From the IMG/VR virus record IMGVR_UViG_2541047849_000005, positions 1-10,330 of that record: a DNA stretch of 10,330 bases; one strand, 5' to 3'. Source of the stretch: a virus. Lineage: Duplodnaviria; Heunggongvirae; Uroviricota; Caudoviricetes. This document shows, piece by piece, positions 1 to 10,330 of the stretch (positions are counted from its first letter, which is position 1; each line of letters begins with the position of its first letter). The translations under genes were made by a program, and so were the position numbers. The notes below the pieces were generated by a model. That model was not told the origin of the DNA, searched no databases, and was given only the letters and a program-made list of their open reading frames with translations.

Positions 1-861
1 ATGAGATTCAGCACCCCATTACGGTATCCTGGTGGTAAAGGTAAATTAACTAACTATCTATCAAAGATCATTATGATCAATGGCTTAGATGGTTGCGAAT
101 ATGTTGAGCCGTATGCTGGTGGTGCTGGAGTAGCCATTAATTTACTTTTGTCTGGGAAAGCATCACGTATACATTTAAACGATCTTAATAACGCCATTTT
201 TTGTTTTTGGCGGTCGATTCTAGAAGAAACTGATCAGTTTTGCCAATTAATTGAAAAAACTCCTGTGAATATGGATGAATGGTATAAGAATAAAAATATC
301 ATTAGTAATCAATGTGATTATTCCTCATTGGAAGTTGGATTCGCTACGTTTTTCCTTAATCGAACAAATCGGTCAGGAATTTTGTTAGGTGGTGTAATTG
401 GTGGTAAGGAACAAAATGGAAAATGGAAAATAGATGCTCGATTTAATAAGGTTGATTTAGTAAACCGTATTAAGGTAATAGCAGACCGTAAATCTGATAT
501 TTGTATCTATAACCAAGATGCTAAATCATTCTTGCAAAATACTGTAACTGGATTCCCATTAAAAACATTGCTTTATCTTGACCCTCCATATTATGTTAAA
601 GGAAAGGGCTTGTATCAAAACCATTATAGTCATGATGATCATGTCGAAATTGCTAATATTATAAAATCTAATTCAAAGCATCCATGGATTGTATCTTACG
701 ATAATACTGTTGAAATAAACAACATGTACACTGGTCTTAGAAAAATTGAGTACGGTATCAGCTATAGTGCTCAATCTAGGTACCAAGGGCCAGAAGTAAT
801 CTTTTTTTGTGATAGCATTTCTATTCCTGATGATATGGATCCTACAAGAGTCAAATTATAG
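1..861 (+). CDS. Dam-family (D12 class) N6-adenine DNA methyltransferase, 286 aa
   Basis: N-terminal AdoMet-binding region YPGGKGKL...VEPYAGGAGV (aa 9-44), FFLNRTNRSG block, catalytic DPPY at aa 194-197 (nt 580-591). Colinear with E. coli Dam motif order (WAGGK / VEPFVGAGS / LYLNRYGYNG / CDPPY) as recalled. Visibly AT-rich compared with the neighbouring int. ATG at nt 1, TAG at 859-861. Confidence 0.85.
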   Translation: MRFSTPLRYPGGKGKLTNYLSKIIMINGLDGCEYVEPYAGGAGVAINLLLSGKASRIHLNDLNNAIFCFWRSILEETDQFCQLIEKTPVNMDEWYKNKNIISNQCDYSSLEVGFATFFLNRTNRSGILLGGVIGGKEQNGKWKIDARFNKVDLVNRIKVIADRKSDICIYNQDAKSFLQNTVTGFPLKTLLYLDPPYYVKGKGLYQNHYSHDDHVEIANIIKSNSKHPWIVSYDNTVEINNMYTGLRKIEYGISYSAQSRYQGPEVIFFCDSISIPDDMDPTRVKL

Positions 862-1981
862 CTATTTTACTCCAATCTTTCCCTCGGTCATCATGGTAGC
901 GATCTGTTTGCTGCTGGGTTTTATGGCCCAGTAGCTTTCTAGTATCGATCCCCTGTTCTTTGTACAGGCGTTCAGATAAAGACCTTTGTTCATGGAATGT
1001 TGCGGGTGAGCCATCACCCCAGTCAATTCCTGCTAAATCCCTCGCTTTACTGAAATTCATCGTCAATGTATTGGCTTTTACTTGCGCGCCACGTTCAGCC
1101 TGTGAAGTAGTACGAAAAAAATGTACAAGGTATGGGCTGACTGCATAGTCACGACAGCGGGCTACTACATTGCGTAAACTCCAGTTAATCGCATTGAGGC
1201 GAAGAGAAAGAGGAATTGCGATTTTGCTTCCAGTCTTTTCCTGTACGACATGAAGATGATCATCCCAAATATCGCTAAATTTCATACGCGAGATATCACC
1301 TAACCGCTGGCCAGTAACCAGTGCTAACAGCATGGCATTCCCCATATAACGATGACTGGCATCTGCGATTTCAAAGATTTTTTGCCATTCTTCAAGACTT
1401 AACCGTTGTCGGGTAATTTTTCTTCTGGGCTGTTTGGTGGCTAATGCCGGGTTATAGCCCGGGGGGACTTCTCCGTAGTGTTGCGCCTCCTTGAATACAT
1501 CAATCAGGACGGAACGAACTACTTGCGCCATTCTCGGCTGTCCGACGGCGATATACTCGTCAAGCAACTGGGCTATATCCCTGACATCAACGGCTGAAAT
1601 TAACTTCAGTCCTGCTCGTTCCCTGAGCAAGGATACTGGTTTGGCTTTCTGTTTATAGGTATTGAGCTTTATATCGCCACTTTTCAGTCTGTCATCCTGG
1701 ATTGCTTGATAGCGATCTAACCAGGTTGACGTTGTGATTGCTTTTCCTTTGCTGGTTGCGATTCTGTCACTGATAGCCAGAATCTGCCGGGTTCTTTGCT
1801 CAGCCAGGCGTGTATTGGCCTCAGTGGCAATAGCAATGGCTTCAGCTTCGTTTGTGCCCAAAGAATGAAACTTCCCGGTCACTGGATGCTTATATCGCCA
1901 ATAAACTTTATTTACTTTTCTGCTATAGAGTGGATACAAGTTCGGGACTGAAACATTATTTTTACGTGGTCTGGCTGCCAT
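851..1981 (-). CDS. int: Lambda-family tyrosine integrase (site-specific recombinase), 376 aa
   Basis: N-terminal arm-binding-type region (PNLY...YWRYKHPVTGK), catalytic-domain blocks LALVTGQRLGDISRMKFSDI and C-terminal HEQRSLSERLY...LLGHKTQQQTDRYHDDRGKDW closely parallel lambda Int (HELRSLSARLY...LLGHKSDTMASQYRDDRGREW), with the catalytic Tyr in DRYHDDRG. Stop TGA on the complement of 851-853. Confidence 0.92.
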   Translation of the reverse strand: MAARPRKNNVSVPNLYPLYSRKVNKVYWRYKHPVTGKFHSLGTNEAEAIAIATEANTRLAEQRTRQILAISDRIATSKGKAITTSTWLDRYQAIQDDRLKSGDIKLNTYKQKAKPVSLLRERAGLKLISAVDVRDIAQLLDEYIAVGQPRMAQVVRSVLIDVFKEAQHYGEVPPGYNPALATKQPRRKITRQRLSLEEWQKIFEIADASHRYMGNAMLLALVTGQRLGDISRMKFSDIWDDHLHVVQEKTGSKIAIPLSLRLNAINWSLRNVVARCRDYAVSPYLVHFFRTTSQAERGAQVKANTLTMNFSKARDLAGIDWGDGSPATFHEQRSLSERLYKEQGIDTRKLLGHKTQQQTDRYHDDRGKDWSKIAII

Positions 1982-2207
1982 TACTTAAAATCCTTTGTAG
2001 AATAATAGAATCATTTTTCTTGATGACAGGAGTAACTAATTCCCCAACTAACTCTGCGTCCTCACGTACTCGCCATAGTCGACCTTGTTTCATTGCCGGT
2101 GGACAAAATAAATTCTGCTTAGCATAACGACGCAATGTGGACACACTTGGAGGATTACTCCTAAATTTTTCCGCAGCCCATTCCTCAAGTGTCAGCATTT
2201 GAAGCAT
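1962..2207 (-). CDS. xis: Excisionase (Xis, lambda-like), about 81 aa
   Basis: Small basic protein MLTLEEWAAEKFRSNPPSVSTLRRYAKQNLFCPPAMKQGRLWRV resembling lambda Xis (MYLTLQEWNARQRRPRSLETVRRWVRECRIFPPPVKDGREYLF). Its 3' end overlaps the int start by 20 nt, as in lambda. Start chosen at the second in-frame ATG (2207), which has a GAGG about 9 nt upstream; the ORF-track start at 2222 is an alternative. Confidence 0.75.
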   Translation of the reverse strand: MLQMLTLEEWAAEKFRSNPPSVSTLRRYAKQNLFCPPAMKQGRLWRVREDAELVGELVTPVIKKNDSIILQRILSNGSQTT

Positions 2208-2250
2208 TTTTGATAACCTCATTTCTTTTGCTACAAAACTATTTCACTAG

Positions 2251-2799
2251 TTAATTTCGCTGTCTGGATTGTTTATGTATCTTATGCAGCTCTTTAAAGC
2301 GTTCCATAAACATCCCGTAGGCATGGCCCGGTGCCAGTGGAATCACTTTGAACATCTCTGTTGCCGGGATACCTTCCAGTACAGACCAGAAAGAGCCATC
2401 ATCAAGCCCGAGATCGCGGCGTTCGGTTGCCAGCATGATGAGATCGGCATATTTCACAGGCGTGCTCATAACCGGGGGTAACCCGTATTTCTCACGGATT
2501 ACGGCGTCTATTTTTTCTTCCATCCGTTTATAGTCAGGAAGAAGGCGTTTCAGTGGCGCGGGGATGTCCTGACAATAAGCTTCTGTTGCATCATGCATTA
2601 ACGCTTCAAAAGCAAATTCCTGCGGTACCAGCTGGCTGCAAAGCACCGCATGTTGGGCGACGCTGTAGAAGTGTGAAAGATGTCCTGCAAAGCGACAGAT
2701 ATTTGAAAGGGAAACCGCGATATCGTTAATAACGATGTCGTCTTTATTTATCCTGTCATAATAAAAATGCTTCCCAGAAAAAGTTTTAATAAATGACAT
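2251..2799 (-). CDS. yfdR: HD-domain phosphohydrolase, YfdR-like (prophage 5'-deoxynucleotidase family), about 182 aa
   Basis: HD-domain metal-ligand pattern: H in FAGHLSHF, HD in ALMHDATEAY, downstream D in ATERRDLG. Start placed at the internal ATG (2799) preceded by GGAGAA; the 21-codon upstream extension to 2862 has no RBS. Position between xis and a YfdQ-like gene matches the K-12 CPS-53 yfdQ-yfdR order as recalled. Confidence 0.7.
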   Translation of the reverse strand: MSFIKTFSGKHFYYDRINKDDIVINDIAVSLSNICRFAGHLSHFYSVAQHAVLCSQLVPQEFAFEALMHDATEAYCQDIPAPLKRLLPDYKRMEEKIDAVIREKYGLPPVMSTPVKYADLIMLATERRDLGLDDGSFWSVLEGIPATEMFKVIPLAPGHAYGMFMERFKELHKIHKQSRQRN

Positions 2800-2893
2800 T
2801 TTGTTCTCCACGTTATTTGCGCTGCACCGCACAGAATTCTGGTAAAAGGAAGCCCTCACCATCCGGCGATTATTGAGTTAATTACGTTTCCAT

Positions 2894-2915
2894 AAATGCC
2901 CCCGCAGGGGCATTT
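2894..2915. other. Perfect 9-bp stem / 4-nt loop hairpin (AAATGCCCC-CGCA-GGGGCATTT) in the intergenic gap between the YfdQ-like and YfdR-like genes
   Basis: Inverted repeat read directly from the sequence. There is no clean U-tract after the stem on the minus (transcribed) strand, so it is more likely an RNA-processing, stability or attenuation element than a strong terminator. Confidence 0.35.
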
Positions 2916-2927
2916 GCAGTAATGAAA

Positions 2928-3752
2928 TCAGGCGGTGAAAGTACCAATAAAGGTTTCTACTTTGCTGTCTTTGAATTTCTCAACAAGCAGATCACGAAAT
3001 TCGTTAGCCATTTCTTCCTGCACCGCTTCCAGCTGAATAATGCGCAGAACCAGTACAGGACGATCGCCAGTGATAATGCTGAGGCGTAATTTAAATGAAC
3101 GTTCTTTCAGGCCTTCAAACGGAACGCATTTAAATTCAAATGCCACTGGCATAATGTCTTTGGTCTTCGCTTCGACAGACTCCATCAGGGAGCGTTTGCC
3201 GCTGAAGTCATTATCTTCAAAATCAGCGGTCTGGTTCGCTTCAATTGTGATTTTACGGATAGCTGCCGCCGCTTTGGTTGCCTGAATGGCGTCACCATTA
3301 GCATCAAAGCCCACAAGGTAGTCGGCCCAGTCTTCAATCCATTCTGCCAGTGATTTCTGGGAGTTACGCTCGCCATTAACAGACAACAGAGCAGAGAACG
3401 GTGCTGTCTTTTTCAGTTTGAGAGTGGCGGTGTTATCTGCGTGACCTGGTTCATCAATAGTACCCAGGTTAAGCACACTGACGGCACGCATATTATCAGC
3501 ATCGATAAAGCAGCGGGTGCCTTCATCTGCAAGATCTTTAGAATAACGGGTAAAGTCATCGATGCTGGCAGTGGAAAGCGCACCACGGAAACGGAAGCGA
3601 TTTAAATTAAATTTTTCCAGATCATGAATGCGGAAATTCTCAGGCAATGCCACAGCATCGGCACCAATCTTACTGATAATTTCATTAACACCCTGAGCAG
3701 AAATAAGGGCATGGATTTGATTAATTGCGGTTGCGTCTAAGTTCTGAGACAT
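2928..3752 (-). CDS. Phage early protein, YfdQ-like (DUF2303-type), 274 aa
   Basis: Long ORF with a GAGGA RBS 7-11 nt upstream of the ATG. Size (274 aa) and position immediately upstream of the HD-domain gene match prophage yfdQ as recalled. Family name is tentative; no catalytic motif recognised. Confidence 0.65.
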
Positions 3753-3817
3753 AATAAGTCCTCACTATATAAAGATATTCAGTGATGAGATAAATAATCA
3801 GTTAATTAATAACGATA

Positions 3818-4180
3818 TTAATGGCCTGCTGCGCGGAGTTTTCCGTCAGGTTCACCGGCAAGAGTCAGTAATTGTCCCTGGTCTTCCTGCAGAATAGTCA
3901 GGCGACCACCGCGATTGACATACATCGGCGTTTCGGTGGTGTCTTCTTCGGAAATTTTCCCGCGGTTAGTCGGGCGAACATATGAGAGTTTGTGTTTGAT
4001 TTTCACACGGTTCTCATCAAATGGTTCGATTTCCAGGTTGAGTGAGACCTTACCTTTGGTTTTCGTGTTCATCACACCGGAAGCGACTTCACTGAGAACT
4101 GCGCCGATTTTGGTTTCAAATACGCCGCCGTCCAGCTCCCCGATAAATGCCTGCACATCAGTACTGCGTTCGCTAGCCAT
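3818..4180 (-). CDS. Hypothetical phage early protein, 120 aa (positional equivalent of yfdP)
   Basis: ATG at complement 4178-4180 preceded by GAGGAG (ATGATGAGGAGCAGCAAAATG). Sequence beginning MASERSTDVQAFIGELDGGVFETKIG has normal composition. The ORF-track extension up to 4498 is Arg/Cys-rich and implausible. Confidence 0.65.
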   Translation of the reverse strand: MASERSTDVQAFIGELDGGVFETKIGAVLSEVASGVMNTKTKGKVSLNLEIEPFDENRVKIKHKLSYVRPTNRGKISEEDTTETPMYVNRGGRLTILQEDQGQLLTLAGEPDGKLRAAGH

Positions 4181-4324
4181 TTTGCTGCTCCTCATCATAT
4201 CGACCCTGCAAGGCCGATTAGTTTCTCCACAAAACAGAGAAGAACACCTGCGGTGGCAGCCGCCCGGATGGATTGGGTTATGAGCCCGTCGTCCGGTGAT
4301 GCTCTTCTCTGTTTTGTAAAAAGG

Positions 4325-4411
4325 ACGGTACCAGCCGGAAGCAAGGGTACAAACTGGTACCGCCAGGACTACACACAGCATAAAGTTGTGGTGCCGGGTG
4401 CCTCCCGGTGC
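4325..4411. repeat. Cluster of six GGT(A/G)CC motifs: 9-bp inverted repeat CGGTACCAG(4325-4333)/CTGGTACCG(4353-4361) plus three direct GGTGCC copies (4389-4394, 4396-4401, 4406-4411)
   Basis: Read directly from the sequence. Lies in a GC-rich non-coding island between divergently oriented gene blocks; could be operator or recombination-site remnants. Confidence 0.4.
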
Positions 4412-4617
4412 CTGGCGAAGGTTGCACACCAGACGGGTGGGTATCCACAGAAGGTCGACTGTCAGCCTCAACCTTAACCCGCGTGCGCTGAGCCGCATTC
4501 ACCACAACGCTAAGGATTCTCTCTGGTTGAAAATACTTAGCTGTTATGTGCCTGTCTTTTCACCACTTCAGGCTCGGTGGTATCCTTTTAAGCCCGTATA
4601 CATAAAAGGAAAATCAA

Positions 4618-4767
4618 ATGACTTTTGATGAAAAAGAACTTGATAATGCAATTAATAAAATCATCGTAACGTCGCTCTTTTCCTGTCTCAGCGACACTCA
4701 GCAGAAACAGTTCTACGAATCGGCTTTCAACATGATCGAGCGTTGTTGTTTCTGCGATGCCGACTAG
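4618..4767 (+). CDS. Small ORF, 49 aa (MTFDEKELDNAINKIIVTSLFSCLSDTQQKQFYESAFNMIERCCFCDAD), hypothetical; possibly the N-terminal stump of a deleted gene
   Basis: ATG at 4618 preceded by AAAGGAAAA 7-8 nt upstream; stop TAG at 4765-4767. Not in the supplied ORF track, presumably below its length cut-off. Overlaps the 5' end of the tape-measure reading frame in another frame. Confidence 0.3.
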   Translation: MTFDEKELDNAINKIIVTSLFSCLSDTQQKQFYESAFNMIERCCFCDAD

Positions 4768-6302
4768 TTACAACGGCTGATTTTCAGAACATGATGCAGA
4801 TGCTGGTGCGTCAGGGGATCCCGGCAGAAAACATTCTTGGCGGTGTGGGTAAAGCGACAGCTTATCTTGCGGTACAACTGAAAAAAACACCGGAAGCGGC
4901 TGCCGAGTTTGCCGCAAAGATGCAGGATGCTACCGGAACGGCGTCAGAAGACATGATGGGGCTGTTCGACACTATCCAGAAGGCGTTTTATCTGGGCGTT
5001 GACGATACCAACATGTTGTCCTTCTTCACTAAAACCAGTTCTGTTCTGAAGATGGTGAACAAGGACGGTCTTCAGGCTGCACAGAGCCTTGCCCCCATCA
5101 GCGTCATGATGGATCAGATGGGGATGAACGGGGAGTCGGCAGGTAATGCCCTGCGAAAAGTTATCCAGTCCGGATTAAGCGTTAAGAAAATCAGGGACGT
5201 CAATAAAATCATGGCCCGCCAGAAACTCGGGGTACAGCTCGATTTTACTGATGGCAAAGGGAGTTTTGGCGGTCTTGATAACATGTTCAGGCAACTGGCA
5301 AAGCTGCGAAAACTGACCGACGTTAAGCGAACCGGTGTACTTAAGGCAATATTTGGTGATGATGCCGAAACCCTTCAGGTGGTCAATGCTCTGATCGATA
5401 AAGGAAAGAATGGTTACGATCAGATCCAGCAGAAGATGCATAAACAGGCCAGCCTGAATAAACGTGTTCAGGCCCAGCTTGGTACGCTGTCCAACCTGTG
5501 GGAGGCAATGACGGGGACCGCAACTAACGGCCTTGCGGCTATTGGTGGCGCATTTTCTGGTGACGCCAAAAATATCACGCAATGGCTGGGGGAGTTAGGG
5601 GAAAAATTCACGAAGTTTGCGGATGAAAATCCCCGGGTTATTCGCGGCGTCGTCGGGCTTGCTGCCGGTCTTGCGATTCTGAAACTGGGATTGATGGGCG
5701 TGGGCAGTGCCATCAGTATCGTCAGCAGGATCATGTCGATGACGCCGATTGGCATGATTGCGACGGCGATTGCCCTGGCTGCGGGATTAATTATCACTAA
5801 CTGGGATGTTGTCGGACCTTATTTTAAGAAACTCTGGGAAACCATTAGTCCTTATTTTGAGGCTGGCTGGGAACTTCTGAAGAAGGTTTTTGCCTGGTCG
5901 CCGCTGGGGATGGTGATCAATAACTGGGGACCGGTTGTTAAGTGGTTTCAGGATATGTGGGATAAGCTGAAGCCGATTATTGAATGGTTTACCGACAGTT
6001 CCGGTGACACGGTCGATGCCATTAACTCGGCGCAGTGGGGCGCGGGTGCTTATGATGCTTATGAGACGGGAATACCGCCACGGGGATACACTCCTTATCC
6101 GGAGGTGGATCCGGCTCAGGCAAACAACGCCTCCGGTGCCACAGGCTCGAATCCCTTCATGATTAATAAAGTTACCGCGCCAAAAGTTGATGGTGAGATC
6201 AAGGTATCATTTATAAATATGCCACCAGGTATGCGGGTTACGGAAACACGCTCCAGTGGCATTGATATAAATCACGATGTTGGCTATACCCGATTTTGGT
6301 AG
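4743..6302 (+). CDS. Phage tail tape measure protein, C-terminal portion (probably a 5'-truncated remnant; pseudogene candidate)
   Basis: Internal hydrophobic stretch (VIRGVVGLAAGLAILKLGLMGVGSAISIV...IGMIATAIALAAGLIIT) followed by a Trp-periodic region (W every 9-11 residues, about nt 5797-5990), both typical of tape measure proteins. The frame is open from 4659, with a TTG at 4743 and the first ATG at 4791, and no convincing RBS. At about 519 aa it is shorter than the usual 700-900 aa, and the upstream sheath/tube/chaperone genes are absent. Confidence 0.7.
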   Translation: MLFLRCRLVTTADFQNMMQMLVRQGIPAENILGGVGKATAYLAVQLKKTPEAAAEFAAKMQDATGTASEDMMGLFDTIQKAFYLGVDDTNMLSFFTKTSSVLKMVNKDGLQAAQSLAPISVMMDQMGMNGESAGNALRKVIQSGLSVKKIRDVNKIMARQKLGVQLDFTDGKGSFGGLDNMFRQLAKLRKLTDVKRTGVLKAIFGDDAETLQVVNALIDKGKNGYDQIQQKMHKQASLNKRVQAQLGTLSNLWEAMTGTATNGLAAIGGAFSGDAKNITQWLGELGEKFTKFADENPRVIRGVVGLAAGLAILKLGLMGVGSAISIVSRIMSMTPIGMIATAIALAAGLIITNWDVVGPYFKKLWETISPYFEAGWELLKKVFAWSPLGMVINNWGPVVKWFQDMWDKLKPIIEWFTDSSGDTVDAINSAQWGAGAYDAYETGIPPRGYTPYPEVDPAQANNASGATGSNPFMINKVTAPKVDGEIKVSFINMPPGMRVTETRSSGIDINHDVGYTRFW

Positions 6303-6330
6303 CCAGGATTCCCCTCACAGGTATTGCTGG

Positions 6331-6358
6331 TTGTAAGTCATAAATAGAGTGATAGAAT
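6331..6358 (+). promoter_or_regulatory. Candidate sigma70 promoter with extended -10 for the moron gene (-35 TTGTAA 6331-6336; 16-nt spacer; TGaTAGAAT with hexamer at 6353-6358)
   Basis: Motifs read from the sequence; about 35 nt upstream of the 6394 start codon. Not experimentally supported. Confidence 0.4.
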
Positions 6359-6393
6359 TAATGCACATTTAGAAAAATGTTAATAGGCGAAAA

Positions 6394-6924
6394 ATGAAAG
6401 GCTATATCACAGCAAGTGTAATTCTTGGAGCAGCGGCTATTTTTTCATCTCTCATAATCTCTGGCAACATCTCCTTTAAAGATGAACATATTATTCAGTT
6501 ATCTGGAGGAGCCATAAAACTTGGTGATGTTTATAAAGAAAATAAATTGATAAGTGCAAAGATTATTTTTCCAGATAATCAGGGTGAACAGATTCTTGTT
6601 GTCGACGGCAATCCTGAAAACTTTAAGGAGGATTTTCAGGGGAAATTAAATAAAGTAATAAAAACTTTAAATGCGTCAAAGAAAAAAGATGAAGAGAAAG
6701 TTAGCCTGGATAATTTAAGTGTTATTGAAGAGTCTAAACTAGAGCTCGTTTCTGCGGTGCGTTACTCTGCTCAGTATGTTCCTATGTTTACTCTGACGCT
6801 GGACAAAAAAGAAATTACCATGCCTAAAAATACGGTAATATTTCCATTTGCCAGCGATGAAACAGCTAAGTATTTAAATGAACAACAGCAAAAGTATAAA
6901 GATTCGTTGTTTCTGACTCGCTAA
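6394..6924 (+). CDS. Moron-encoded membrane-anchored protein of unknown function, 176 aa (single N-terminal hydrophobic span, Lys/Glu-rich C-terminal domain)
   Basis: Clean ORF in an AT-rich insert. N-terminus MKGYITASVILGAAAIFSSLIISG is an approximately 20-residue hydrophobic signal-anchor; no cysteine, so not a lipoprotein. Flanked by its own promoter candidate and an intrinsic terminator. No family recognised. Confidence 0.8.
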   Translation: MKGYITASVILGAAAIFSSLIISGNISFKDEHIIQLSGGAIKLGDVYKENKLISAKIIFPDNQGEQILVVDGNPENFKEDFQGKLNKVIKTLNASKKKDEEKVSLDNLSVIEESKLELVSAVRYSAQYVPMFTLTLDKKEITMPKNTVIFPFASDETAKYLNEQQQKYKDSLFLTR

Positions 6925-6941
6925 TTAATAAAATTCATTAC

Positions 6942-6975
6942 AAGGCCACCTTCTAATAGGTGGCTTTTTAATTTT
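6942..6975 (+). terminator. Rho-independent terminator (stem GCCACCT 6945-6951 / AGGTGGC 6958-6964, loop TCTAAT, then TTTTTAATTTT)
   Basis: GC-rich 7-bp stem followed directly by a T-run, 18 nt after the moron stop codon and just before the next gene's RBS. Confidence 0.75.
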
Positions 6976-6985
6976 CGGAGTATAT

Positions 6986-8404
6986 ATGACGTGGAAAGAC
7001 AGGCTTCAGGATGCGTCATTTCGAGGTGTGCCGTTTAAGGTTGAAGAAGAAAGTGCGGGAACTGGCCGTCGTGTGGAAACGCACGAATACCCGAACCGCG
7101 ACAAACCCTATACCGAAGACCTGGGGAAAATTACTTTCCGCCCGTCCATCACGGCTTATGTGGTGGGAGATGACTGCTTTGACCAGCGCGATCGCCTGAT
7201 TGACGCGCTGAATAAACCCGGTCCCGGCACGCTTGTCCATCCGACTTACGGTGAGCTGAAAGTCTGTGTTGACGGAGAAGTTCGGGTCAGCACATCGAAG
7301 AGTGAAGGACGTATTGTCCGCTTTGACCTGAAGTTTGTCGAAGCAGGAGAACTCTCTTACCCCACATCAGGTGCGGCGACGGCGCAGGCGCTGATGTCAT
7401 CCTGTTCTGCACTGGATGACTGCATCAGTAACAGCTTCAGCGGTTTTAGTATCGATGGCGTGGCGGATTTTGTGCAGAACGACGTCGTCGGTAATGCCAG
7501 CACAATGCTTGGGTATGTTTCTGATGCGATGAAAGTGGTGGATTCTGCCGTATCGGATGCCGCCAGGCTGTTGCAGGGGGATATCTCGGTACTTCTGCCG
7601 CCGCCATCGTCAGGCAAAAATTTCGTTGAGCAGGTGCAGAAAATGTGGCGTACCGGGAAACGCCTTTATGGTAACGCCAGCGACCTGGTCACCATGATCA
7701 AAACGCTTTCTGGTGTCAGCCTCGGCAGCGATTTGCAACCGCGCGGCGTCTGGAAAATGGACAGTAAAACCACCGCCACAGCGACGCAGCAGCGTAACAT
7801 GGTTGCCAGCACCCTTCGTACGACTGCAATCAGCGAAGCGGCGTATGCCGTTACCCGATTGCCTGCGCCAACAACTTCTGCGGTGATGCAGAATGCCGCA
7901 GTGGGGCAGTCAACAACACCCGCGCAGAGCTCCGGCTGGCCTGCCGTCACGCATCCGGTGCTGAACAATGCACCGGCGGTGAAAAACACGGTTGACCTGC
8001 CAACGTGGGAAGAACTGACCGACATTCGCGACACACTGAATATGGCAATTGATAAGGAGTTGTCCCGTACAACCAGTGATGCGCTGTTTCTGGCGCTGCG
8101 CCGGGTGAAAGCAGATCTGAATGCGGATACCTGGCCTGCGGTACAGAATGACCGTTACGGCTCCCGACTGTGGCTGCTTCAGCGCAGCAAACTGACCAAT
8201 CAGCTGGTGCAGACGGTAAGGGGGTATATCCGCGAATGCCTGCAATGGATGATTGATGATGGCGTGGTGTCCCGTATTGATCTGGATATCCGCCGCACCG
8301 GGATTAATGAACTGGGTAACAGTATCACTCTCTGGCGTCGTGACGGACCGGTAATGATTTCTTTTGATGATCTGTGGAGTGCGATAACGCATGGCGGACA
8401 GTGA
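6986..8404 (+). CDS. Mu-type DNA circulation protein (gpN/gp43-like) tail component, 472 aa
   Basis: N-terminus MTWKDRLQDASFRGVPFKVEEESAGTGRRVETHEYPNRDKPYTEDLG carries the hallmark SFRGVPF...GRR..HEYP.RD block of the DNA-circulation N-terminal domain. GGAG RBS 5 nt upstream of the ATG at 6986. Confidence 0.85.
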   Translation: MTWKDRLQDASFRGVPFKVEEESAGTGRRVETHEYPNRDKPYTEDLGKITFRPSITAYVVGDDCFDQRDRLIDALNKPGPGTLVHPTYGELKVCVDGEVRVSTSKSEGRIVRFDLKFVEAGELSYPTSGAATAQALMSSCSALDDCISNSFSGFSIDGVADFVQNDVVGNASTMLGYVSDAMKVVDSAVSDAARLLQGDISVLLPPPSSGKNFVEQVQKMWRTGKRLYGNASDLVTMIKTLSGVSLGSDLQPRGVWKMDSKTTATATQQRNMVASTLRTTAISEAAYAVTRLPAPTTSAVMQNAAVGQSTTPAQSSGWPAVTHPVLNNAPAVKNTVDLPTWEELTDIRDTLNMAIDKELSRTTSDALFLALRRVKADLNADTWPAVQNDRYGSRLWLLQRSKLTNQLVQTVRGYIRECLQWMIDDGVVSRIDLDIRRTGINELGNSITLWRRDGPVMISFDDLWSAITHGGQ

Positions 8405-9449
8405 ATTTCAGCGCCCGACGCTGGCAGAAAATATCAGTATGCTCCGTAACGATTTATTCGCCAGGCTGGACGTCAGCGACACGCTCCGGCGCATGGATGA
8501 AGACGTGCGGGCAAAGGTGTATGCGGCGGCGCTGCATACGGTTTACGGTTACATCGATTATCTGGCAATGAACATGCTGCCTGACCTGTGCGATGAGTCC
8601 TGGCTGGCGCGACATGCTGCGATGAAACGGTGTCCGCGCAAGGGGGCCACGGCTGCCAGCGGGTATATGCGCTGGGAAGGTGTCAGCGATGGCCTGAAGG
8701 TGACTGCCGGGAGCGTGATTCAGCGCGATGACCTGGTTCAGTACACGGCAACTGCTGATGCAACCAGCTCCGGTGGTGTCCTGCGCGTGCCGATCACTTG
8801 CTCAAGTGCAGGCGCGGTCGGTAACGCTGACGACGGTACGGCATTAATCCTGGTCACGCCGGTGAATGGTCTGCCGTCTTCCGGTGTTGCAGATACTCTG
8901 ACTGGCGGATTCGATACTGAAGATCTGGAAACGTGGCGCGCCCGCGTCATTGAGCGGTATTACTGGACGCCGCAGGGCGGGGCTGACGGGGACTATGTCG
9001 TCTGGGCTAAAGAAGTGCCCGGCATTACCCGCGCATGGACATACCGTCACTGGATGGGAACGGGAACTGTCGGTGTGATGATTGCCAGCAGTGACCTGAT
9101 TAATCCCATTCCGGAAGAATCAACGGAAACGGCGGCAAGACAACATATCGGGCCACTGGCCCCGGTGGCAGGCTCTGATTTGTATGTGTTCAGGCCGGTG
9201 GCACATACGGTGGATTTTCATATCCGCGTGACGCCGGACACACCGGAAATACGGGCTGCCATCACCGCGGAGTTGCGTTCGTTCCTGCTGCGTGATGGTT
9301 ATCCGCAGGGAGAACTGAAGGTATCGCGTATCAGTGAGGCGATTTCCGGTGCGAACGGGGAATACAGCCATCAGTTGCTTACACCGGCAGACAATATCTC
9401 CATTGCAAAAAATGAACTGGCGGTACTGGGGACGATTTCATGGACGTGA
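8391..9449 (+). CDS. Baseplate J-like protein (Mu gp47 / P2 gpJ / e14 JayE family), 352 aa
   Basis: Size, position before a gp48/YmfQ-like gene and the tail fibre, and overall similarity to baseplate-J proteins as recalled. Start overlaps the upstream stop by 14 nt (translational coupling). Confidence 0.7.
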
Positions 9450-10024
9450 CAAACGATGATTACATCCGTCTGTTGTCGGCACTGTTGCCCCCCGGTCCGG
9501 CGTGGTCAGCCAGCGATCCGTCGATTGCCGGTGCGGCACCGTCATTAACCCGCGTTCATCAGCGTGCGGATGCCCTGATGCGGGAGCTGGATCCGCGCAC
9601 CACCACTGAACTGATAAACCGCTGGGAGCGTCTGTGCGGTCTGCCGGATGAATGTATTCCCGCAGGGACACAGACCCTTCGCCAGCGTCAGCAACGGCTG
9701 GATGCGAAGGTTAACCTGGCGGGCGGCATCAACGAGGATTTTTACCTTGCACAGCTTGCTGCCCTGGGCAGACCAGACGCTACCATCACGCGATACGACA
9801 AAAGCACGTTCACCTGCTCATCGGCCTGTACTGACGCTGTGAACGCGCCTGAATGGCGGTATTACTGGCAGGTCAACATGCCAGCCACCACCAACACCAC
9901 TTGGATGACATGTGGCGATCCCTGTGATTCCGCGCTGCGCTTCTGGGGGGACACCGTTGTCGAGTGTGTTCTTAACAAACTCTGCCCGTCGCATACCTAT
10001 GTGATTTTTAAATATCCGGAGTAA
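9440..10024 (+). CDS. Phage tail protein, Mu gp48 / YmfQ-like (DUF2313-type), 194 aa
   Basis: Length identical to e14 YmfQ as recalled; located between the baseplate-J-like and tail-fibre genes; overlaps the upstream gene by 10 nt. Confidence 0.7.
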
Positions 10025-10027
10025 TCC

Positions 10028-10330
10028 ATGCATCGTATAGACACGAAAACCGCGCAGAAGGATAAGTTCGGCGCGGGTAAGAACGGTTTTACCCGTGGTA
10101 ACCCCCAGACCGGCACGCCTGCCACCGATCTGGATGATGACTACTTTGACATGTTGCAGGAGGAGCTTTGCAGCGTTGTGGAGGCATCCGGTGCCAGCCT
10201 GGAGAAGGGGCGGCATGACCAGCTGCTTACCGCGCTTCGTGCGCTGCTGTTAAGCCGCAAGAATCCGTTTGGCGATATCAAATCGGATGGCACGGTGAAA
10301 ACAGCTCTCGAAAACCTTGGTTTGGGAGAA
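10028..10330 (+). CDS. Side tail fibre protein, N-terminal part (partial; continues beyond the window)
   Basis: N-terminus [47 protein letters not shown] is the conserved baseplate-attachment N-terminus seen in Mu-type/e14-type tail fibres, as recalled. GGAG 7 nt upstream of the ATG at 10028. No stop codon before the window end. Confidence 0.75.

Follow-up and report, generated by a model that had tools for sequence, protein, structure and literature searches.

An in-frame deletion joins baseplate genes N and gp46 in a decaying e14-type prophage of Escherichia coli

We analysed a 10,330-nucleotide (nt) stretch of Caudoviricetes DNA (IMG/VR record IMGVR_UViG_2541047849_000005, positions 1 to 10,330), referred to here as the window. 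Within it, an open reading frame (ORF) of 472 amino acids (aa) beginning with ATG (6986–8404, + strand) runs directly into the baseplate J/Mu gp47-like gene (8391–9449, +), overlapping it by 14 nt with nothing between the two. Pfam, PHROG and identity to a relative, E. coli AHB3, resolve this ORF into an in-frame chimera of residues 1–381 of N, a Mu gp43-like DNA circulation/baseplate protein, and residues 51–141 of gp46, a gp25/W-like wedge protein. The window covers the left and middle portions of a prophage of the e14 family (SfV-like), defective and integrated at icd in a single E. coli strain (GCA_000459575.1). A sequence-only reading of the window had already remarked on the 14-nt overlap and on the missing hub, spike and wedge genes. 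Both observations hold: no ORF intervenes, and phage SfV and the prophage of AHB3 each carry N, P, gp45/V, gp46 and J.

The two-part nature of the ORF is evident at the protein level. Pfam places DNA_circ_N (PF07157), the N-terminal domain of the N family, at aa 7–93 (profile positions 2–88 of 88, E = 7e-34) and GP46 (PF07409) at aa 381–455, the latter covering profile positions 29–100 of 101 and so falling short of a complete domain. The PHROG split is nearly the same, with family 184 at aa 1–382 and wedge family 180 at aa 376–469. The suspicion that the C-terminus belongs to another family was thus well founded, its ~91 final residues being GP46/gp25-like by both Pfam and PHROG. Full-length N proteins of ~440 aa align only to aa 1–381..400 of the chimera, and a search of 5.8 billion proteins returned none colinear with the whole fusion, N proteins covering 81–85% of it. 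Full-length colinear homology, named in the sequence-only reading as grounds for refutation, thus did not turn up. The only other N::GP46 protein found was P0016 (380 aa, on four contigs), in which N is broken at residue 290; it sits in a likewise defective remnant, where a terminase fragment abuts the 176-aa gene that in AHB3 follows the tape measure gene.

A full-length prophage at the same site in E. coli AHB3 (NZ_OZ547164.1, locus L001) supplies the parental arrangement. Its gene order is tape measure protein (TMP), 176-aa gene, N (442 aa), P hub (359 aa), gp45/V (182 aa), gp46 (141 aa), J and YmfQ, with identities backed by Pfam, and SfV has the same five-gene order of N, P hub, gp45/V, gp46 and J. 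Synteny with these intact relatives, a comparison that the sequence-only reading had proposed, places every one of the separate genes between N and J. By blastn, window positions 4769–8129 correspond to L001 6001–9361 at 99.94% identity (2 of 3,361 bases differ), and positions 8125–10330 correspond to L001 11316–13521 at 98.6%. Three-way alignment of the window with both L001 arms puts the deletion junction at 8125–8129, where a 5-bp microhomology, GGATA, is present in both parental sites. The deletion measures 1,959 bp, a multiple of three equal to 653 codons.

On either side of this junction, the remnants match their parents exactly. The N-derived part (6986–8129, +) has lost the last 61 codons of the 442-aa intact protein by blastn against L001, and the gp46-derived part (8130–8404, +) keeps codons 51–141 and the stop. 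Intact gp46 matches Pfam GP46 1–100; here, codons 1–50 are deleted and the domain no longer runs complete from a start codon of its own. Of the residues retained, 381 of 381 in the N part and 91 of 91 in the gp46 part are identical to the separate AHB3 proteins. The 14 nt over which the end of gp46 overlaps the beginning of J (8391–8404, +) are unchanged, and the same overlap is found in L001 (11582–11595) and in SfV (L002 7962–7975). The sequence-only reading had located the event at 8374–8404; the overlap there is real but is the native gp46/J overlap, and the junction lies 250 nt upstream.

One event of illegitimate recombination probably accounts for this arrangement. In the parent, TMP and N were followed by the P hub, gp45 spike, gp46 wedge and J genes in the usual Mu-type order, and recombination between GGATA at N nt 1140–1144 and GGATA at gp46 nt 147–151 removed the last 61 N codons, the entire P and gp45 genes and the first 50 gp46 codons. 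Joining was presumably mediated by the microhomology, after either slippage or a break. Because N and gp46 are read in the same frame and the 1,959 bp lost make up whole codons, the remnants read as one 472-aa ORF, and because the chimera still ends in the native gp46/J overlap, N looks coupled to J. Of the two explanations that had been offered for the odd arrangement, the in-frame fusion of the 5′ part of N to the 3′ end of a downstream gene is therefore the one borne out, at nucleotide resolution.

The deletion is recent and private to the strain of GCA_000459575.1. The exact 472-aa protein is recorded on a single scaffold, KE701198.1 of that assembly, in two samples, and a 121-bp probe spanning the junction was covered in none of 5,426 complete E. 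coli genomes.

Both halves of the chimera have counterparts in the solved Mu structure 9ki1, in which six chains each of N and gp46 are listed. The N part matches Mu N (gp43; E = 5e-15, with aa 10–433 of the intact protein aligned) and the gp46 part matches Mu gp46 (E = 1e-14). Compared with Mu N, however, the chimera is missing the last 61 residues of N, a segment conserved with Mu N, and compared with Mu gp46 it is missing gp46 residues 1–50, among them conserved residues as far as the WWGD motif. The chimera is probably a non-working product of decay.

A second, larger deletion has removed most of the remaining morphogenesis genes. Mapping to the intact reference places its junction at 4769–4771, where 21.3 kb are missing across a 3-bp microhomology, TAC, and the early-left region is joined, out of frame, to TMP codon 100. 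This deletion took the repressor, replication, Q, lysis, HNH, terminase, portal, protease, capsid, connector, sheath, tube and chaperone genes along with the first 100 tape-measure codons; in the remaining TMP gene (4770–6302, +), the match begins at nt 300 of the intact gene and Pfam PhageMin_Tail is still recognized. Between them, the two deletions leave the Mu-type tail module without sheath, tube, chaperone, TMP 1–100, P, gp45, N 382–442 and gp46 1–50. Since hub, spike, sheath, tube and head genes, among others, have been lost, the gene content predicts an element unable to make tails or particles. The suggestion that the tail module is not assembly-competent is thus supported, on broader grounds than the missing hub, spike and wedge genes first named: sheath, tube, tail-assembly chaperone, TMP codons 1–100 and all head genes are gone as well.

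Several independent deletions and chimeric ORFs per remnant are the rule in the e14/SfV prophage family. Other remnants show similar multi-step decay: TMP is joined to N and P to J in L011 (8001–11146), the yfdP side to sheath and N to fibre in L014 (3951–9632), and a hypothetical gene to J and J to gp48 in L099 (8001–10131).

Directly observed are the junction, the gene arrangement of the parent and the absence of the other genes for morphogenesis, and we consider it very probable that the explanation as a whole is correct, namely that an in-frame deletion fused N to gp46 in a decaying e14-type prophage, with the chimera a decay product and no tail formed. Three points weigh against it. The window is part of a draft scaffold, and its junction is known only from the assembly. 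The identities of the two arms to AHB3 are unequal (99.94% versus 98.6%), meaning that the right arm had a parent not exactly like AHB3. Finally, a promoter-like site (4618–4647) lies upstream of the remnant operon, making transcription of the chimera possible.

The first two points invite the suspicion that the junction was created during assembly of a draft genome with more than one SfV-like prophage. The source scaffold does have a 2.3-kb run of undetermined bases just downstream, several related prophages frequently coexist in an E. coli genome (the median is 2 places), SfV/e14-type modules being carried by ~2,900 genomes, and the arms differ in identity to AHB3. Assemblers, however, join at shared k-mers of tens of bases rather than at 5 bp, the junction lies within a gap-free 10.3-kb stretch whose contig is recorded in two samples, and comparable junctions occur in finished genomes, that of K-12 MG1655 among them. 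An artefact is accordingly very unlikely.

Similarly improbable is that selection keeps the chimera as a domesticated prophage protein useful to the host. Genes of cryptic prophages can benefit their hosts (PMC3105296), the fusion is in frame, and J, gp48 and the start of the fibre gene are intact downstream. Yet the chimera is without conserved parts of both parents, and its restriction to one strain, together with a sequence unchanged from the intact parents, makes it too young for selection to show. When junctions are collected at the DNA level, and hence not ascertained through proteins, in-frame joins are no commoner than about one in three. The frame of the present fusion is thus most simply due to chance, with odds of one in three, and we reject selection for in-frame fusions.

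The notion of a compact-baseplate lineage, where a single N-gp46 protein would stand in for N, hub, spike and wedge, could draw on the uninterrupted ORF, the preserved native coupling to J and the existence of a second N::GP46 protein (P0016), but is next to untenable given that the genes are separate in a relative 99.94% identical on the left arm and in the tail-forming phages SfI, SfII and SfV, that the element itself lacks sheath, tube and head genes, that N is broken elsewhere in P0016, itself part of a defective remnant, that the allele occurs in 0 of 5,426 complete genomes and that, as is well established, every contractile baseplate has hub and spike at its core.

The fusion is therefore a routine finding, an odd gene arrangement explained by a recent, strain-private deletion in an e14-type cryptic prophage undergoing ordinary decay. 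It does carry a warning for annotation: what is called a 'DNA circularization protein' here combines parts of two baseplate proteins that are unrelated to each other.

The positions at which such prophages break, by comparison, are less ordinary. A homology search uncovered many other chimeric N proteins with repeating breakpoints. N fragments starting at residue 43 follow a tape-measure, sheath, terminase, capsid or unidentified fragment, or Q in L090; fragments ending at residue ~290 precede a gp46, fibre, pin or gp53-like fragment; and N ends at residue 381 both in the window chimera and in P0013 (L010), whose DNA breaks lie within 1 nt of each other. The gp46-side end of the window junction is within 2 nt of that of P0016, so that both ends of the 1,959-bp deletion are recurrent sites. 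Elsewhere in these prophages, K-12 e14 and L010 have in common an end at portal nt 408, L010 and L014 share one at sheath nt 719–722, and a GGTAACC site in terL serves as the right end in K-12 e14 and as the left end in P0032.

Ninety-two loci were mapped onto a 42.4-kb reference built from AHB3. Recurrent sites in the reference (L001/L005) fall at N nt 126, 870, 1144 and 1202; gp46 nt 147–151; J nt 272, 451–471 and 634–637; sheath nt 607, 719–723 and 828; portal nt 405–408; terL nt 591–598 and 795; and capsid nt 328. Deletion ends in e14/SfV-family prophages thus recur at the same nucleotides with different partners, and there is good reason to regard these positions as genuine hot spots.

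We then asked which short sequences accompany the breaks. In an unbiased k-mer test over 33 distinct breakpoint sites, GGTA/TACC ranked first (16 sites versus 3.0 expected, p = 6e-9 over 136 tests) and GGGTA/TACCC second (9 versus 0.8 expected). Perfect GGTACC or GGTNACC lay within 8 nt of 9 of the 33 sites, compared with 1.9% of random positions, this motif having been chosen after seeing the data. Four of the 11 GGTACC and 6 of the 18 GGTNACC copies in the region are used sites, and just 3.2% of the region is near any used site. The microhomologies at the junctions are themselves pieces of the motif (GGTA, GGT, TAC, ACC, TTACCCG and GGATA). As the two sides of a junction share their microhomology, site counts are partly doubled and counts per junction are the safer measure.

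An independent set of nine precisely mapped junctions, obtained from J-protein chimeras in a separate library search, gave the same picture. The motif was present at 7 of the 9 junctions (1.83 expected, p = 4e-4) and at 9 of 18 sites (1.94 expected), a count that 0 of 20,000 simulations reached; 5 of the 12 previously unseen sites carried it. With these junctions added, J nt 634–637 (cattACCCGcgc) has five different partners, the sheath GGTGACC site three, and the replication-gene GGTAACC site and the KilA-N GGTATCC site two each. A smaller sample of complete genomes added few new junctions and these were mixed, several having ordinary microhomologies (CTGGATGA, CGGATG) without the motif; a J-based IMG/VR search returned mostly intact prophages. 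The motif at deletion ends is a strong tendency, not a rule. Literature searches brought up no relevant account of a motif at hot spots of prophage deletion.

One candidate for the cause of the breaks is encoded by the prophage itself. The intact relative carries a gene for a 116-aa HNH protein (L005 18155–18505; WP_044864222.1 of AHB3; Pfam HNH) adjoining a P27-family terS, and this gene is deleted from the window. The best solved relative of the protein is the HNH endonuclease of Geobacillus virus E2 (5h0m), aligned over the full length, including the N-terminal zinc ribbon (E = 4.9e-12); the combination of HNH motif, N-terminal zinc ribbon and position beside a P27-type terS is found in the intact relative only. 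Xu & Gupta described terminase-associated zinc-ribbon HNH proteins encoded beside cos/terminase (N.phiGamma, N.phi105 and N.phiE2) as strand-specific nickases (PMC3592412). Their reported sites are CG|GT (phage gamma and E2), YG|GTY and BG|GT, any one of ACCG, ACCC, ACTG and ATCG is accepted by the phage gamma enzyme's minimal nicking domain, and two close nick sites on opposite strands give linear DNA (PMC3592412). For another terminase-associated HNH endonuclease, HK97 gp74, the same paper states that the specificity was not determined (PMC3592412). Whereas the known nickases are Bacillus/Geobacillus enzymes with mapped sites, the E. coli HNH protein is likened to them by sequence. GGTACC and GGTNACC each amount to exactly two G|GT sites on opposite strands, and one boundary of the cos cohesive end in the reference, GGAC|TGCC, reads CA|GT on the other strand.

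Decay may be sequence-directed, through the terminase-associated HNH nickase of the prophage and possibly with terminase, a tentative proposal that we regard as plausible though rather unlikely. The nickase would nick or cut prophage DNA in situ, palindromic sites would yield double-strand breaks that are rejoined through microhomology, and the prophage would thereby help to inactivate itself. Such a nuclease, combined with microhomology joining, would explain the motif, the equal standing of both palindromes and the fixed ends with variable partners. Host restriction at GGTACC/GGTNACC, or another host process, is also a possible cause of the breaks. The recurrent, motif-linked breakpoints are the sole part of this analysis that a specialist might find surprising. 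If deletions in this common E. coli prophage family do begin at particular short sequences, the decay of prophages, commonly regarded as a random process, is in part mechanistic, and knowing the sites would help to predict which chimeric ORFs recur in E. coli genomes.

We also observed an over-represented 8-mer, TACCCGCG, with 7 copies in the 42-kb reference against about 1.3 expected. The copies are at L005 18593 (12 nt from cos), 20264 and 26687, N nt 1202, J nt 636 and fibre nt 45 and 564; two of them, at N nt 1202 and J nt 636, coincide with deletion hot spots. The cos-side copy, beside the cohesive end TGCCCGCCCC, shares a 13-mer, TTTATACCCGCGA, with terL.

Several other sources of recurrent breaks were considered and set aside. 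Chi sites number 11 in the reference, none of them placed or oriented to explain the hot sites. The att region, considered for the e14 att core and secondary integrase sites, contains no GGTA, and the cos cohesive end TGCCCGCCCC is unlike the motif, although TACCCGCG is only 12 nt away. The motif published for DNA gyrase is degenerate and spans 130 bp, with no simple core given for comparison, and the AAACC-NN-GGTTT of Pin invertase pseudo-sites misfits most sites as judged by eye. As to deletion mediated by insertion sequences (IS), no IS sits at the junctions except in an unrelated IS1 case in L098; TTAC targeting by IS200/IS605 requires element hairpins, and none are present.

The closest well-known counterpart of the element is K-12 e14 (intE ... 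beeE, jayE, ymfQ, stfP, pinE, mcrA, icdC), which occupies the same site between icd and an icd′ fragment, adjoining iraM. The intE-type integrases are ~88% identical at the nucleotide level and the SfV-like J, gp48 and fibre genes 96%, and both elements are defective by internal deletions that make chimeric ORFs (ymfN and beeE|jayE in K-12). The deletions themselves differ. In K-12 e14, a replication gene is joined to terL and portal nt 408 to J nt 272, leaving no N, no gp46 and a truncated J, whereas the present element keeps most of TMP, the 176-aa gene, N::gp46 and an intact J.

Among phages, the nearest relatives are SfV, SfI, SfII and SfIV, temperate myoviruses of Shigella/E. coli with lambdoid early regions and Mu-like tails. 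SfV, SfI and SfII are ~96.5% identical to the element at the nucleotide level over TMP, N, the 3′ part of gp46, J and gp48, and the order around the deletion is alike in SfV. Unlike the element, the Sf phages are complete and tail-forming, with P hub, gp45 and full gp46; they integrate at thrW, carry gtr genes and lack the 176-aa gene between TMP and N. The contractile tail of SfI has been seen by electron microscopy (PMC3636060).

Membership in the e14 family is evident from the 21-kb locus around the 472-aa protein (L003). It opens with icd (1–1068), followed by an AAA_15/AAA_21 ATPase, a D12 methylase, a lambda-type integrase, an excisionase and yfdR-, yfdQ- and yfdP-like early genes; the middle holds the truncated tape measure gene, the 176-aa gene, the chimera, J, gp48 and the start of the fibre gene. 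Beyond a 2.3-kb run of N bases come a resolvase fragment (15765–15944), GmrSD and an icd′ fragment (Iso_dh, 18706–18870), then the iraM-side host genes. The intE-type integrase with its excisionase, the SfV-like J, ymfQ and fibre genes and the pin-linked fibre region are likewise those of the family.

Within the window, the intE-type, lambda-like integrase gene (851–1981, −) matches Pfam Arm-DNA-bind_1 and Phage_integrase and is annotated intE in relatives, in keeping with the position of the element between icd and the icd′ fragment. The excisionase and the early-left yfdR-like, yfdQ-like (DUF2303) and yfdP-like genes follow (1962–4180, −), as assigned from profile matches and the annotation of relatives. 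Downstream of the chimera, the J gene, which begins with ATG and encodes 352 aa, is intact (Pfam Baseplate_J, E = 2.8e-53; 352 of 352 residues identical to AHB3), and the Mu gp48/YmfQ-like wedge gene (9440–10024, +; Pfam Phage_Mu_Gp48) is identical to AHB3 at 189 of 194 residues. The window ends in the 5′ part of a tail-fibre gene (10028–10330, +), recognized from its translation, which runs into the scaffold gap.

That gap follows window position 10330 and consists of 2,335 N bases (L003 13348–15682) in the tail-fibre region, adjoining the pin resolvase fragment. Its position fits an assembly break at an invertible fibre segment.

The 176-aa gene (6394–6924, +; PHROG 5485, unknown function) separates TMP from N. 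AHB3 has this gene as well, but SfV does not, and window positions 6297–6975 have no match there; the gene accordingly looks like a moron insertion. The predicted protein has a hydrophobic N-terminus, and the gene is flanked by a promoter-like site (6331–6358) and a terminator-like hairpin (6942–6967).

The ends of the element carry genes other than those of K-12 e14. At the left (window 1–861, L003 1237–2946), an AAA_15/AAA_21 ATPase and a D12 adenine methylase replace ymfD/ymfE/lit, the methylase stop overlapping the integrase stop by 11 nt; at the right (L003 15990–17879), a GmrSD-type enzyme stands where K-12 e14 has mcrA. AHB3 and L014 have still other genes at the left end. These differences suggest that defence-type cargo is swapped at the e14 attachment site.

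The mechanically called 226-aa ORF of the yfdP-like gene (3818–4498, −) is too long. Gene callers and relatives give 120 aa (3818–4180), and PHROG 204 matches only residues ~101–225 of the longer ORF.

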